A DNA stretch of 64,000 nucleotides from Gemmatimonas sp. (lineage in GTDB: Bacteria; Gemmatimonadota; Gemmatimonadetes; Gemmatimonadales; Gemmatimonadaceae): the NCBI GenBank assembly GCA_031414535.1, contig JANNVQ010000029.1, positions 128,001-192,000 of the forward strand, given 5' to 3'. Positions 9,001 through 39,000 of the stretch are shown in pieces. Each line of letters starts with the position of its first letter. The first letter of the stretch is position 1. The position numbers were made by a program.

Positions 9001-12000
9001 GCTCGTGAAGCGCAGCGCCTGCGCCGTCGCTCCAACTAGCGCGCTCAAGGTCCAGCGCACCGCGACGCGGCCATCAGCGTTGGTCACGAGCGAAGAATCG
9101 TTCGTCGTACCGCCGCCGGTGATGGCCACGTTGATAGTCGCGCCGGAGATCGGGAGACCATCGGTGGCGAGGAGCCGCACGACCACGGAGTCGCCGAGCG
9201 TGCTGCCGGCAGTTCCAGTGATGGTGCCTGTCCCAACGCGGGAGAGCGTCGCCGGCTTCGGCGCGATGACGATGACACCGGTGTCTGCCGCGGACCCTGC
9301 CGCGAGCGCCACCCGCACGCGCGCGATGCCGCGGGATGGCAGGGTAAGCCCCGTTCCTGCGCCGATGCCGCCGAGCGCAGCGCGCGAGGAATCAAGCGCG
9401 AAAAAGAGCACAGGAGCATTTGCGACTGTAGCGCCCTGGCCATCTTTCGCCGTGGCCGTGAACGTAAAAGGCGCACCTGCCTCGAGCCGGATGGTGTCGG
9501 GCAGGATCTGCACGCCCGTGGCCGACGCACCAGGGCCGGTGTACGTGAGCGTGATTGGCGTAGGCTGCGGCGGTGGCTCGCCGCGTCCCAGCTGCCGAGC
9601 GAGCACGGACTCTGGGCCGCCGCGGAAGACGGTATCGCCAGCGGCGTTGATGTACTGCAACGAGAGCTCCAGCTCTTCTCCCTCGGCTGGTGCGTTTGCC
9701 GAGAGCTGCACATTCAGCGAAACTTGGAGCTCGGCGACCTCAGACGAAGCAGGAAACACCCGGGCCAGCGCCACCGCGCCGTTTGAGCGCGTGAGGATCA
9801 CGCGCACGCTGGTGTAGGGCACCACCGAGCCCGCACCCTCCTCTACGCTGGCAAGCTCCCCAGGGAACGTCGAGACAAAAGACAGTCCCTCAGCGAATCG
9901 CAGGCCGCCGTTTGGACCCGTGATCTCCCGGCCGCAACTGAGCAGCGACAAGAACAGGGCGGCGCCAGCGGCAGCGAATCGGCGGGCAGAGGCCCGGAGG
10001 ACCGGAGGACGAGTCATCCAATGACTTTACGACTTGGCGCAGAAGCTGACTAGAGGGTACGTCCTCGAGGACTGTGACCTAGTGCACAGAAATCATTCGG
10101 TACCACCTCGCGGAGGCGGGACCCAGCGGCCACATTTCCCGCTCAGCAAGCCCGCCGCTCCCCGTGTTCGACCCCGCCCGAGTGACCGACCTCCGCATCC
10201 AACTGCAGTCCACGCTCGGCGACGGCTACACCCTCGAACGAGAGCTCGGCGGCGGCGGCATGTCACGCGTGTTCGTGGCTCGCGACAATGCGCTCGGGCG
10301 CGAGGTTGTGGTGAAGGTGCTTGCCCCCGAGCTTTCGGCCGAAGTGAGCCTTGAGCGCTTCGCTCGCGAAATCGCGACGGCGGCACGCTTGCAGCAAGCG
10401 AACATCGTGCCCGTGCTCGCCTCGGGTGCCTCGGCTGGCCTCCCCTACTACACCATGCCCTTTGTGAAGGGCGAGTCGCTGCGTGCGCTGCTCGCGCGCG
10501 GCACTGTGTTATCGCTACACGATCGTCTCAATGTGCTGCGTGATGTGGCGCGGGCACTCGGCTACGCGCACGGCGAAGGCGTGGTGCACCGCGACATCAA
10601 GCCAGACAACATTCTGCTTTCGGCGGGCACCGCCGTGGTGACCGACTTTGGTATCGCGAAGGCCATCAGCGCGGCGCGCACGCACGATGGCTCGTCAGCG
10701 GCCAACGACGGGACGCTCACGCAGGCCGGGAGTAGCATCGGGACGCCAGCGTATATGGCGCCTGAGCAGGCGGTGGGCGAGGCCGTGGACCATCGCGCCG
10801 ACATTTACGCTTGGGGGGTGGTGGCGTACGAACTGCTGAGCGGCGCGCATCCCTTTGCGGGGAAGAGTGGTGCTTCGCAGTTGATTGCGGCGCATCTGGC
10901 GGAGATGCCAGTGTCGCTTGAGCTGCGCGCGCCTGAGCTGCCGCGTGAGGTGGCCACGTTGGTGATGCAGTGTTTGGCGAAGAAGCCGAGTGAGCGGCCG
11001 GCCGCGGCCAACATTTTGCTCGAGCGCCTTGCCGCCGTTACGACGCCGAGCGCTGGGCGGCCCGCTGAGCGTTCCGGTGCTTCCGCCAGCGCATCGAGTC
11101 AGCGTAGCATAGGCATCGGGGCGCTGATTCTGATTGCTGCTGCCGTAGCGTTCTGGTTCGTGAAGGGGCGCGATGCAAACGGAGATGCGAGTGCCAGTGC
11201 GACTGCAACCGCCCAGTCGGAAACACTCTCGTCGCTGGCCGTGCTGCCCTTCGTAAACACCAGCGGCGACGCGCAGGATGAGTACTTCAGCGACGGCCTC
11301 ACCGACGAACTCTCGCACGCTTTGTCAAAGCTCCCGGGCCTGCGCCTGGCCGGGCGCTCGTCGAGTTTCTCGTTCAAGGGCAAGACCATTCCCGCCTCTG
11401 AAGTAGGCGAGGCTCTCGGCGTAGGCGCCATCGTTGAAGGCACCGTGCGTCGCGCTGGCGATCGCATTCGTTTGACCGCGCAGCTCACGAGCACGCGCGA
11501 TGGGCAGGTGCTGTGGAGTGATGCCTTCGAGCGCACGGGCGCGGATGTGTTCGCGGTGCAGGATGCGTTCACGAGCGCCATCGTGGCCGCACTCACTCCG
11601 CGCCTCGCTCAGGCCGCGGGCGCGCGCACGACTTCAACGGATCCGTCGAATGTCACCGCGCGCGGGACCACTGATGCGTTGGCGTACGATCTGTATCTGA
11701 AGGGGCGATACTACTGGGCGCAGCGCGGCGCAGGCCCGCTCGATAGCGCGGTGAAGTATCTCGAGGCGGCCGTAGAGCGTGACGCTACGTTCGCACGCGG
11801 CTGGTCAGCGCTCGCGCTGGCTTACGTGATTCGTCCTAACTTCAATACCGACGTCGATTTCGCTCTCTCTGACGCGAAGGTGGACGTCGCGGCGCGGCGG
11901 GCGCTCGCCATTGATTCCACCAGTGCGGATGCTCACGCCGCTCTCGGCTTTCGCGCCATTCGCCGATTCGACTTTGCGCTGGCTGCGGCCTCGCTGGAGG

Positions 12001-36000: not shown

Positions 36001-39000
36001 CAGAGCAACTGTTTCGGCGATTCGATCTCGTGACTGGCGATCTCGTCCCCCGCGTGCAATCGGACATCGCCATTTCGCCTGATGGAAGCAAGCTAGCGAT
36101 GGCAGGGACGGTGGGCGGTGAGACGGCCATCTATATCCGCAATCTTGATGGCGATGCGGAGTTTCGGAAACTCGCTGGTACTGAGAATGGCGTCCTCCCA
36201 GACTTCTCACCGGATGGTGAGTGGATCGTGTTCCGGCGGGATAGCGACAAGTCCCTCGTGAAGATTTTGGCGAGCGGTGGCGGCGCCGTCACCCTCGTGA
36301 CCAGTGGGGCGGTCGATCCCTACTTTCCGCAGTGGGAGACGCCTGATCGAATCATCTTCACCACCTTCAGGGAAGTCTACAGCGTTGGTATCGGCGGCGG
36401 GGAGCTCACGCCCCTGCCCAAGGTGACCTGGGGCCGAATTTCTGTGTTGCCCGATGGGAGCGGCGTGCTGCACTCAGACGGTGACGTAAGGCTCTACGAT
36501 TTCGCCACGGACTCCTCCTACCTCTTGGTTCCCGGCGGCGTCGCTCCCACTTACGTGTCTACCGGACACCTCCTCTATGTAGCCAGCGAGGGCGGCCTCT
36601 TTGCTGTGCGGCTCAACCTTGCGACTCACGCTGTGGAGGGGTCACCGGTACGCGTGCTCGAGCGCGTGGGAGCGGGAACGCTTGCGCGCGGTTATTCGAT
36701 GTCGGCAACTGGTGTCCTCGTACAGAGGGATGCGGACGGTGCGGCCAGTTTGAACTTCAACAGCCTCGTCATTGTAGATCCGGGTAAGGGCGCGGATACG
36801 CTTCGCTTGCCACCAGCCCGCCGTGCGAAGATGCGCTTCTCTCCTGACGGGCGCTCCCTCGCGATAGAGGTTTCTAAACCCGATGCGGACACCGACATCT
36901 ACTCGCTCGATCTCGTGACCGGCACATATACCCAGCTCACTTTTGAGGGAGATAACGACGAGGCGATTTGGTCACCGGATGCGAAGCGGTTGCTTTTTGA
37001 TATGCGCGTGCAGGCAAGTCCAGCTGGCGAGGATCTCCACATCAAGCCGGCAGACAACAGTGCCGCGCCGCGCCGCCTGACGATGCTCGGGGCGCAGGAG
37101 CTGTCGGCGTCGCAATGGCTCAGCGATACGCTCTTGCTCTTTGAGGCGATCTCTGCGGGTCGGGGCTACGACCTGTTCACCATCAAGTCCGACTCCGGCA
37201 GCGTACCGGTGCCCTATCTGCAGACACCAGCCAACGAAACTGAGGCGCGCATCTCTCCGGACCGGAAACTCATCAGCTACACGTCTGATGAAGGAGGCCA
37301 GCAGGTGTGGATGCGAGACTTCCCCATTCCGCAGGGCAAGTGGAGTATCTCCCAAGGTCGAGGGCGCGCTGCGCGCTGGTCATCCGACGGGCAATACGTG
37401 TACTTCTGGAGAGGCGCCACGCCGCTGGACTCCCTGTTCCGCGTTCGCGTGGAGCGTACGCCGAATATCGTCGTGCGGGCGCCGGAGTTGGTCCTCGCCA
37501 CAGACGTTGTCGATATCAGCGCCTGGGATCTCCATCCCGATGGACGGCGCTTCATTGTCAGTGTGCCCACGAGCACCGGCACGTCCGCGGCTCGTGGATC
37601 GTCTTCCCGATATTTGATCCTGCAGAACTTCTTCAGCGAGTTGAATCGGCTTACCACTCCTCGGCCGAAGTAGCTCAGTCCCCAGGGAGGAACGCCCAAA
37701 GCGCGGGGCGTCCCACGTTGCAGTGCACTACGCGCGAGATCGGCGAGAGCGTACCCCAGCCGAGCCAGAGCGCGTGCCGTGCGACGTGATGTGCGTGCCA
37801 CCAGCGCAGCGCCTTCGCGCTGCCGCTGGCGGCCTGCGCTGAGCTCAATCGCGCCAGTCGGTTGCTGCGCGCGGGCACGGGGTGGAAGATCGTCTCGACG
37901 CCGGCGGAGCGCGCCGCTTCGTCGTCCTGCCAGCGATCCAGCTGCTCAACGGCGCTCTGCAGCGAGCGGGCTTCTCCATCAGCCGCTGTCGCCTGGTCCA
38001 AGGCATACACAGCGGCTCGCGACGGCGTAGGAAGCACGAGCACGCCCACGAACGCCCAGAGCGTCATGCCAGCCGCCATCGTGAGCAGGCTCGCCGCGCT
38101 TCCGAGCGTGTCGCCGCTGAGCGCAATCACCAGGCATAAGCCAAGCGTGTTCCACGCAATCGCCGCCAACACGCCTCGCAAATGCGCGCCCGATTCCACG
38201 ATGATGCGACGTCGCTTGAGCGTGGCGAGCAGTGCATCGTCCGGTAGAGACAGCCACGTCGCCGGCAGCAACAAGCGGCGCGGCACGATGCCGCTCCATC
38301 CACCGACGAATCCTTCGTCGTTGCTTTTGAGCGCGAGAATACGCTCAGGCGATATGCCGGCGAGCTCTGCGATGCGGCGGTCACGCGCCGAAAGCGGTTG
38401 CGGCGTGAAGGACGCAATGACGCGAGCCAACGGAGCGCGCAGCGCGGCGAGAACGTACTGTAGCAGCACAAAGCATCCGATGGCAGCAGCGGTGCCGCCG
38501 GCCCGCGCCGCGGCGATCAGTAGGCTAGCCGAGAGCATCCAGATGGCGAACTGCATTGCCGCGCCGCGAATCCAACGCCCGAGGAAGGCTGCAACGGATG
38601 GGCGACCACGGACGACTACGGCACCGCCCATCACGTCGAATGGAAATAGAGCCGCGAGTCCGACCACCAAAACCAACGCGAGCGAAGCGAGGGCCTCGGA
38701 CAGCGGTTGACTGACGGAGTTGGACAGGGTCCGTGTCGGTACATCGAAGGCCAGCAGAGCGGTCGCCAACAATACTGATGTACCGACGCCACAGATGCCG
38801 ATGTAGAGGCGCGAGCGCGCATAGCTGAGGCGAGAGGGAGCGCTTGGGGAACTGAGTGCGGGGGTTGCCATGTAACGTGAACGTTCAAGACAGCCGGGTA
38901 GTGCGCGAGATCACTGTCCATGTCGGCTCCGCGGGGTAGAATGAAGAATGACTCGTCACGCCCTGTTCGCCTTCGCAGCGCTTTCCGTGCTCGGCACTGC

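Follow-up and report, generated by a model that had tools for sequence, protein, structure and literature searches.

The window analysed here, a stretch of 64,000 nucleotides on contig C29 of the sediment bacterium Gemmatimonas sp. (genome G000), contains ten intact open reading frames for Hanks-type kinases, standing head to tail on the + strand at 10164-37673 (Table 1). By Pfam, the first two end in TPR repeats and the other eight in PD40 repeats; the alpha/beta domain of kinase 1 is one that we take to be TolB-N-like. A first-pass annotation had described the ten kinase genes in a row, eight of them of the kinase-helix-propeller form, and two toxin-antitoxin pairs inside the array (17597-19005), all of which was confirmed; the same genome totals, 42 Ser/Thr kinase genes with 14 of that form, were also obtained. 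The genome has 44 HATPase_c matches against these 42 kinases, so the further claim that the family dominates signalling is not supported here. Sampling for prevalence yielded 34/54 within the genus, 59/82 across three families of the order and 1/38 in families elsewhere in the phylum.

The kinase starts at 10182, 12656, 14913, 19002 and 21668 were set by leader geometry and are later than some listed ORF starts. At six of the nine array junctions the downstream kinase start overlaps the preceding stop, as kinase 2 does with kinase 1, and the others have gaps of 22-36 nt. Sigma-70-type promoters were not in excess in 9500-24500 (1 found, 1.6 expected). Genes for sigma factors, FHA or PP2C proteins are absent from the array and its flanks; the genome has 23, 6 and 3 matches, respectively, elsewhere.

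Table 1. Genes and features of the locus, with positions in the window and predicted domain order
Feature	Position	Strand	Basis or remark
Kinase 1: kinase, membrane helix, alpha/beta domain, TPR; divergent subtype	10182..12659	+	Pkinase + TPR, helix, leader geometry
Kinase 2: kinase, alpha/beta domain, TPR, without membrane helix	12656..14890	+	Pfam, helix check, leader geometry
Kinase 3: kinase, helix, double propeller	14913..17570	+	Pfam; kinase subtype common to kinase 9
TA pair 1 toxin, PIN (VapC-type)	17597..18007	-	Pfam PIN, E 4e-12
TA pair 1 antitoxin, RHH	18007..18237	-	Pfam RHH_3; start taken from sequence
TA pair 2 antitoxin, Phd/YefM	18353..18610	+	
TA pair 2 toxin, PIN	18607..19005	+	Stop overlaps kinase 4 start
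Kinase 4: kinase, helix, double propeller	19002..21671	+	Widespread cassette, preceded by any of several upstream genes
Kinase 5: kinase, helix, double propeller	21668..24304	+	Pfam
Kinase 6: kinase, helix, double propeller	24301..26973	+	Pfam; ectodomain modelled
5' exchange zone, example (start codon to about codon 50)	24301..24450	+	Crossover mapping, stubs; each array gene begins with such a zone
Kinase 7: kinase, helix, double propeller	26970..29615	+	Pfam
Kinase 8: kinase, helix, double propeller	29641..32292	+	Distinct ectodomain class, common to the gene at 55242
Kinase 9: kinase, helix, double propeller	32289..34994	+	Counterpart in G006 at another locus
Kinase 10, which ends the array: kinase, helix, double propeller	35031..37673	+	Pfam
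Same kinase family, outside array: kinase, helix, FGE-sulfatase, alpha/beta hydrolase	52277..55189	+	Pfam, helix
Same family, outside array: kinase, helix, double propeller	55242..57890	+	Pfam

Six catalytic motif patterns (Gly loop, VAxK, alphaC Glu, HRD-K-N, DFG and xPE) were found in 115 of 115 sequences, and the strict form HRD[IV]KPxN in 106 of them. By these motifs the array kinases are of Hanks type, and Ser/Thr phosphotransfer is predicted. A topology with the kinase inside, one helix and the sensor outside is predicted from hydropathy (KD of at least 1.6 for the membrane helix in 104/115), charge bias (the side before the helix carrying the higher net charge in 83 and the lower in 16) and cysteine parity (an even ectodomain count in 37/44). 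The kinase 6 ectodomain was modelled with a pLDDT of 91.9 and matched TolB with Z 28.0 and 26.5 and the PknD sensor with Z 20.7; in Foldseek, the whole ectodomain reached a TM of only ~0.3 to double-propeller proteins such as LRP6. PADLOC matches to the anti-phage kinases PD-T4-6 and MAD6 were confined to the generic kinase domain.

Histories of the kinase and the ectodomain

Among the eight propeller-bearing array members (28 pairs), mean identity was found to be 74% (63-95%) for the kinase and 28% (20-44%) for the ectodomain, reproducing the contrast given in the first-pass annotation with other domain boundaries (76%, 66-97% and 24-38%); kinase 6, for example, is 92-95% identical to kinases 7 and 8 in the kinase and 21-33% in the ectodomain. 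DNA likeness had also been said to stop at the end of the kinase. Megablast among the 14 genes agrees, with 88 matching pairs that all end by nt 918 (best 88%), but in blastn at word size 11 one pair, the 18795 gene and a C45 gene, matches in the ectodomain too. For pairs with ectodomains less than 40% identical, kinase and ectodomain identity are uncorrelated (Spearman -0.01), and AU tests on kinase DNA rejected four of the four ectodomain clades tried (p 6e-4 to 8e-50), a conflict that could be an artefact if clades were picked after seeing the trees. These two results support the proposed receptor-kinase repertoire with decoupled kinase and ectodomain histories.

It was further proposed that one kinase module is kept uniform within each genome while the ectodomains diversify quickly. 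Such concerted evolution is improbable, despite several observations in its favour: 29 of 5721 pairs combine ectodomains below 35% identity with kinases at least 90% identical; over the full length of the kinase, four-fold-site identity within genomes exceeds that between genomes by 2-7 points; and kinases 6-8 have silent ratios of 0.55-0.65 with saturated ectodomains. Local exchanged tracts and mosaic genes also occur, namely exact 5'-zone tracts of 59 nt (kinases 5 and 7) and 53 nt (kinases 3 and 9) and the kinase of the gene at 55242, with its front like kinase 6 and its rear like kinase 9. However, mean kinase protein identity is equal within and between genomes (0.718 and 0.716), 22 of these 29 pairs link different genomes, and the kinase trees group by subtype across genomes, not by genome. 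The longest exact tracts do not exceed 80 nt, and the array kinases, at 63-95% identity, comprise several subtypes. The family-wide kinase silent ratio of 0.82 was dropped as evidence of conversion, being close to the 0.80-0.91 of saturated ordinary genes. Biased gene conversion, considered from a four-fold-site GC content that is higher in the kinase than in the ectodomain in 112 of 115, was also dropped, since conserved ordinary genes are likewise richer (0.84 vs 0.77).

Nor do the ectodomains diversify rapidly: dN/dS is 0.16-0.20 in the propellers (0.09 in the kinase), indicative of purifying selection, and counterparts are 76-92% identical. In most same-ectodomain pairs, the kinase was observed to travel with its own ectodomain; its silent divergence exceeds that of the ectodomain in 8 of 18 close pairs, with no overall excess. 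Kinase halves are re-paired with other ectodomains only now and then, whole-gene exchange being commoner.

Gene order, crossovers and transfer between species

Only one of 21 high-identity gene pairs shares both the ectodomain and the upstream neighbour. Between G000 and the related species G006, the upstream neighbour is kept for one of eight cassettes (kinase 3) compared with 40 of 56 ordinary genes (Fisher p 0.002); the G006 counterpart of kinase 1, for instance, has a different upstream gene. Cassettes are gained, lost and reordered, a trait reminiscent of integrons. Six G000/G006 cassettes have four-fold-site ratios of 0.15-0.56 (0.15 in the TPR part of kinase 2), whereas all 58 ordinary orthologues are at 0.70 or above and the flanking porin at 0.91. 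Being far younger at silent sites than 58 of 58 ordinary orthologues, these cassettes must have moved horizontally. Such transfer is clear only for G000/G006, the cassettes of G033/G037 and G010/G035 mostly matching their own housekeeping genes.

In three-way comparisons, seven of eight crossovers mapped between -48 and +50 relative to the RELG codon, with the start codon at about -57. Change points, which are rough and come from pairs with genes in common, were mapped over an 831-nt region; 14 of 20 lie no further in than +90, within the kinase's first 50 codons (p 4e-7), and in the class with the opposite bias 8 of 13 do so (p 5e-4). Most of the six deeper ones (168-679) are close to the blocks where perfect matches are most frequent. 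Perfect 20-nt matches between different kinase subtypes were found in 43% of pairs at codons 60-80 and in 38% at codons 120-140, against 10% in the 5' block, and homology alone therefore does not predict the hot zone.

This tight 5' clustering, unexplained by local homology, would fit a dedicated recombinase that uses a site within or close to the kinase 5' block, as in an integron-like platform. The fixed geometry of 28 of 48 kinase-to-kinase junctions, ten 5' stubs that end at +20 to +99, the toxin-antitoxin cargo and a 99%-identical cassette in G110, alike from the start codon on, point in the same direction. We nevertheless regard such an enzyme as unlikely, given that the crossovers spread over ~100 nt instead of sharing one position, that silent sites of the 5' block are no more conserved (0.84) than elsewhere (0.74-0.94), and that at least four stubs are deletion scars fused to later gene parts; the idea that stubs are att sites is weakened, several being hollowed genes. 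A search for a recombinase or recombination site at the array found none. None of the five tyrosine recombinase genes of the genome is on C29, where PF00589 has no match; the IntI-like gene sits on C31. C29 carries no copy of the attC-like repeat pattern of the genome, and the exact 27-bp site TGTCG-N17-CGACA occurs three times in the genome, but neither in the array nor in 826 kb of related loci. A short inverted repeat noted by eye in the 5' block was rejected as a recombinase site, as it is not kept in the G000 genes and its silent sites are unconstrained. PIN genes inside arrays number 2/13 in G000, 3/8 in G078 and 2/14 in G010, with none in G102 (0/5) or G062 (0/5).

Mis-joins at the conserved 5' block during metagenome assembly could also scramble gene order. 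All genomes come from mixed samples, as far as titles show, related kinases pile up to several-hundred depth on the 5' blocks, and unitigs break there; in run X1 they end inside the 5' zone, so that ectodomain-to-leader joins were confirmed and leader-to-kinase joins were not. Joints from four sequencing runs were dominated by kinases of other organisms and uninformative on rearrangement within the population. An artefact is still very unlikely. Among 171 G000 paralogue pairs, the two longest exact 5'-zone matches are the 59- and 53-nt tracts and all others are at most 29 nt, so that sharing of 31 nt or more occurs in only two pairs and of 77 nt in none. L091 and L094 are 91-98% identical in the parts common to both, and one exact cassette sets them apart; the switch falls at -24 to -18, where ~6 bases are shared. 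The 12656-14913 join is identical in G006 and the 21668-24301 join in L124, the same reshuffling is seen in G078 (10 contigs), and mis-joins would not give silent divergence that differs cassette by cassette. Ancient tandem duplications without recombination, the kinase being under the stronger purifying selection, are favoured by the dN/dS difference but scarcely credible, because a two-fold rate gap is too small to yield 95% kinase and 23% ectodomain identity in one pair beside 69% and 79% in another, the AU tests refute them subject to how the clades were picked, and gene order is not kept.

The array is probably a repertoire of intact Hanks-type receptor kinases in which homology-driven recombination within the 5' block of the kinase brings about a turnover of whole-gene cassettes, under selection for intact genes; the pattern is observed in the DNA, and we infer the mechanism and the protein-level steps from it. 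In such a protein, a kinase in the cytoplasm would be linked through a single membrane helix to two six-bladed propellers in the periplasm, of which the distal, TolB-like one would be inserted in the proximal one; a putative ligand would switch the kinase on by N-lobe dimerisation, as in PknB/PknD. Since the same conserved kinase block stands at every gene start, the blocks would act as direct repeats, between which recombination would delete, insert or reorder all DNA from block to block and admit cassettes of other species. Crossovers in the first 50 codons would leave the downstream kinase-sensor pair whole and stop/start coupling preserved, and the clustering of surviving crossovers may reflect selection against chimeras or strand exchange that halts where homology ends. 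Rarer, deeper crossovers would re-pair kinase and ectodomain, giving rise to the contrast first noticed. The toxin-antitoxin pairs would be passengers of the array that may delay its collapse. A bolder possibility, which we hold to be doubtful, is a dedicated integrase-free gene-capture platform with the first 150 bases as exchange site, a cassette pool across species, and double propellers that recognise patterns of phages or competitors, like plant immune receptor-kinase clusters.

Overall, the first interpretation is partly supported; it missed whole-gene reordering, gain, loss and between-species transfer with crossovers at the kinase 5' end. Through whole genes gained, lost, reordered and traded, every lineage comes to have a particular set of surface sensors. 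The Gemmatimonadales, which abound in soils and sediments, have received little study, and a large part of their sensing capacity appears to be a mobile, lineage-specific set of receptor kinases, whose own conserved start would be the landing site for integrase-free exchange between species. The 5' crossovers together with cassette-specific silent divergence form a measurable signature to seek in other kinase-rich phyla, and the natural kinase/sensor re-pairings are usable to ask whether many receptors feed one output.

Comparison with known systems

In plant receptor-like kinase clusters, receptor kinases stand in tandem, their ectodomains vary and domains are shuffled. Their likeness to the array is an analogy only, the chain direction being opposite and any immune function of the array hypothetical.

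The nearest solved structure to an array kinase is Mycobacterium tuberculosis PknB (E 3e-52), and the outer six-bladed propeller matches the PknD sensor. Scores against NF033483 (PknB/Stk1) are 264-296 bits, below the cut-off of 450, and cover the kinase part only. The interface position of PknB Leu33 is His in 111 of 111, unlike in PknB, whereas the equivalents of Arg10 and Asp76, presumably functional positions of PknB, are kept. Leu33 is at the centre of a back-to-back PknB dimer in the accessible text of bioRxiv 2026.10.08.757607. Whereas PknD has a single six-bladed NHL propeller (PMC2877116, available part), the array proteins have two nested PD40 propellers, the distal one TolB-like, and no PASTA domains; they also differ in copy number, with 14 copies here and arrays of ~25 in G078.

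Ser/Thr kinase families of Planctomycetota and myxobacteria, as here, join a cytoplasmic kinase to periplasmic WD40 or TPR repeats and show lineage-specific expansion and tandem duplicates; in the accessible sections of PMC11032199, duplication and/or recombination is inferred from trees, and gene-order turnover, 5' crossovers and between-species transfer are not described. Solibacter kinase paralogues are under no positive selection according to the available portion of PMC3174227. The word 'kinase' is absent from the Gemmatimonadota genomics paper PMC11596202, and a literature search, with most subscription papers out of reach, returned nothing on kinase arrays with gene conversion or cassettes.

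Integron arrays also contain co-oriented cassettes that are gained, lost and reordered, and toxin-antitoxin pairs can stabilise them (PMC7167474, in its accessible text, citing Szekeres 2007). Unlike in integrons, no integrase is present at the kinase array, overlapping junctions leave no room for attC, and crossovers are spread over a zone within coding sequence. In Campylobacter group A Tlp chemoreceptors, where recombination is extensive, the signalling halves are near-identical and the sensor halves of low identity (PMC6433261, part available). These are chemoreceptors, not kinases, with more uniform signalling halves, whereas the main exchanged unit of the array described here is the whole gene in a tandem array.

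Kinase genes of the array and their products

The array consists of ten head-to-tail genes with a Pkinase domain (kinases 1–10), with C-terminal TPR repeats in two and PD40 repeats in eight, and the row is broken by two PIN/antitoxin pairs. This layout is as the first-pass annotation described it, and its counts of 42 kinase ORFs in the source genome (G000) and 14 of kinase–helix–propeller form were obtained again. In megablast, none of the 88 hits runs past nt 918. The eight PD40 members are 63–95% identical in the kinase and 20–44% in the ectodomain. Of the nine downstream kinase genes, six have a start that overlaps the stop codon of the gene before; the other three gaps are 22–36 nt.

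Features located in the window (bare positions; G000:C29:128001–192000), in G000 and in relatives (G, genome; C, contig; L, locus)
Location	Strand	Feature
4687–10017		1776-aa protein with Ig-like, MG4 and carboxypeptidase-regulatory domains, divergent from array; BsuPI inhibitor-like gene next
10182–37673	+	Array of ten kinase genes
43184–45706		Sulfatase and FGE gene, near the fused kinase of the next line
52277–55189		Kinase of array family fused to membrane helix, FGE-sulfatase domain and alpha/beta hydrolase
55242		Mosaic kinase
G000:C29:67553		REP-like palindrome of 7-base units (~30 non-overlapping matches; also C2, C5, C7, C8, C10, others)
G000:C31:45346–46617		IntI-like integrase; genome with separate integron
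G000:C40:105046–106263		Divergent 406-aa tyrosine recombinase (PF00589, E 7e-8), unlinked to array
L124:1–4078		Kinase 5 kept; kinase 6 stub joined to last codons of kinase 8-like gene; then small gene pair and kinase 7 counterpart
G078:C3:312000–404000		~25 family kinases in 92 kb, three PIN genes; largest array seen

In a survey requiring a whole kinase and a propeller, 115 full-length genes from 20 genomes were retained from 186 kinase hits. Catalytic motifs are intact in these genes, and in 104 of them a helix with KD of at least 1.6 lies after the kinase. Net charge is higher N-terminal of the helix in 83 genes and lower in 16. The ectodomain cysteine number is even in 37 of the 44 proteins having any, and kinase domains mostly contain one cysteine or none. 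The helix, charge bias and cysteine parity fit a predicted periplasmic ectodomain. In an AlphaFold model built for the ectodomain of kinase 6 (alignment of 110 rows, pLDDT 91.9), the distal propeller (residues 262–541) aligns with TolB (Z 28.0, rmsd 2.8, 261 aligned). The C-terminal strand closes the proximal propeller, which aligns with the PknD sensor (Z 20.7, rmsd 3.0, 236 aligned). The nearest match of the kinase domain is PknB, which is reported to be activated as a back-to-back dimer with Leu33 at its centre (bioRxiv 2026.10.08.757607; PMC3601408). In the array family, all 111 proteins compared have His at the equivalent position, so that a dimer is a putative route of activation here.

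Turnover of whole genes at the kinase start

The proposals that the kinase module is held uniform within the genome and that ectodomains diversify rapidly were not sustained. Kinase identity is 0.718 within genomes and 0.716 between them, and in 18 close pairs the two propellers have dN/dS values of 0.20 and 0.16, versus 0.09 for the kinase, indicative of purifying selection on ectodomains. Kinase and ectodomain have separate histories: across 6312 pairs with ectodomains <40% identical, the one identity does not follow the other (Spearman −0.01). In kinases 6 and 8 the kinase domains share 95% identity and the ectodomains 23%; for a G008/G051 pair, the values are 69% and 79%. AU tests on kinase DNA (25 genes, clades chosen after the trees had been viewed) rejected four of four ectodomain clades (p-AU 6e-4 to 8e-50). 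Kinase swapping between ectodomains is real but occasional.

Whole genes are also reordered. The array of the relative G006 has the same right flank as that of G000, with different content and order, and only one of eight cassettes (whole kinase genes) keeps its upstream DNA, against 40 of the 56 ordinary genes of G006 that could be matched in G000 (9 lost, 7 unclear). A first, looser screen found upstream DNA common to 1 of 27 pairs with a shared ectodomain; a stricter one (259 genes, 84% identity cut) found both shared in one pair, upstream DNA only in seven and ectodomain only in 13. Arrays at eight loci in relatives (L011, L032, L033, L036, L038, L043, L044 and L060) carry cargo between cassettes: DUF5916 proteins (five arrays), amidohydrolases, M1 peptidase, Vps10-type proteins, PEP carboxylase, UvrA and cyanophycin synthetase.

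Sequence comparisons place the crossovers mainly at the kinase start. With the RELG codon as 0 nt and the start codon near −57, the switch lies between −48 and +50 in seven of eight three-way comparisons. Change points, which are rough estimates from pairs among which the same genes recur, fall at +90 or before in 14 of 20 discordant pairs, and in 8 of 13 in the class where repeated events shift the estimate downstream. In the cleanest case, L091 and L094 have the same PIN gene and leader, after which L091 has an extra cassette; in L094 the sequence changes over from that of gene 1 to that of gene 2 at −24 to −18. A 99%-identical cassette in G110 matches from the start codon. The longest exact paralogue matches in this zone of the window are 59 nt (kinases 5/7) and 53 nt (kinases 3/9), and deeper crossovers lie mostly near the blocks richest in perfect matches. 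Relatives contain ten clear 5' stubs ending at +20 to +99 and one longer fragment near +280. At least four stubs are deletion scars; the stubs therefore mark deletion ends rather than any defined site.

Mis-joining during assembly is an unlikely source of the scrambled order: words shared between paralogues are short, some joins recur in G006 and L124, and G078 (10 contigs) shows a like pattern in its ~25 kinases. Four ectodomain-to-leader joins are bridged, at 0–2 differences, by unitigs of run X1, possibly the source sample and not an independent one; these unitigs stop within the 5' zone.

Transfer and mechanism

Silent-site divergence was expressed as the four-fold-site difference over the value expected at saturation. 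Between G000 and G006, this ratio has a median of 0.88 in 58 ordinary orthologues (minimum not <0.70) and is 0.91 for the porin adjoining the array. Six shared cassettes give 0.15, 0.44, 0.49, 0.51, 0.54 and 0.56, indicating that cassettes cross between these species; two more have saturated sites. A single G006 contig carries both young and old cassettes, which favours separate transfers over a misbinned contig. Against generality, cassette ratios match housekeeping genes in G010/G035 (0.43 and 0.55 vs 0.38–0.54) and mostly so in G033/G037 (0.26–0.87 vs 0.51–0.72); cassette order is scrambled in both pairs too. Among family loci, 72 of 73 are in Gemmatimonadota records, and ectodomain look-alikes in the atlas are most frequent in Acidobacteriota. 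One family member, on a 3.3 kb contig in a record titled Lysobacterales (L181), reflects transfer or misbinning.

The turnover is most simply read as homology-driven recombination between direct repeats. No tyrosine recombinase genes were found on C29, the array contig; the IntI-like gene and attC-like repeats of G000 lie on other contigs, and silent sites of the 5' block show no special conservation. The ~40–50 attC-like repeats (38 and 47 matches for two arm patterns) occur on C3, C9, C36, C30 and others. Homology alone is insufficient for the 5' bias, since different kinase subtypes share perfect matches four times as often deeper in the gene. Selection for intact kinase–sensor pairs together with coupled translation could produce the bias, as, alternatively, could strand exchange halting at the end of homology.

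In three of five genomes the arrays show an enrichment of PIN genes (p 0.004, 0.0007 and 0.02), in the other two they contain none, and relatives have other toxin–antitoxin genes and secreted hydrolases between cassettes. That such pairs might stabilise kinase arrays, as described for superintegrons (PMC7167474), is a guess by analogy.

Relation to known systems

The protein is of a known kind: PD40, WD40 or TPR sensors on kinases, and the expansion of such families, have been published (PMC2877116, PMC11032199). Literature searches turned up no account of these arrays or of turnover of whole genes at the 5' end of the kinase, and cassette-like turnover and transfer of kinase genes appear undescribed so far. 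The Tlps of Campylobacter are a documented case of receptors that recombine and have conserved signalling halves (PMC6433261).
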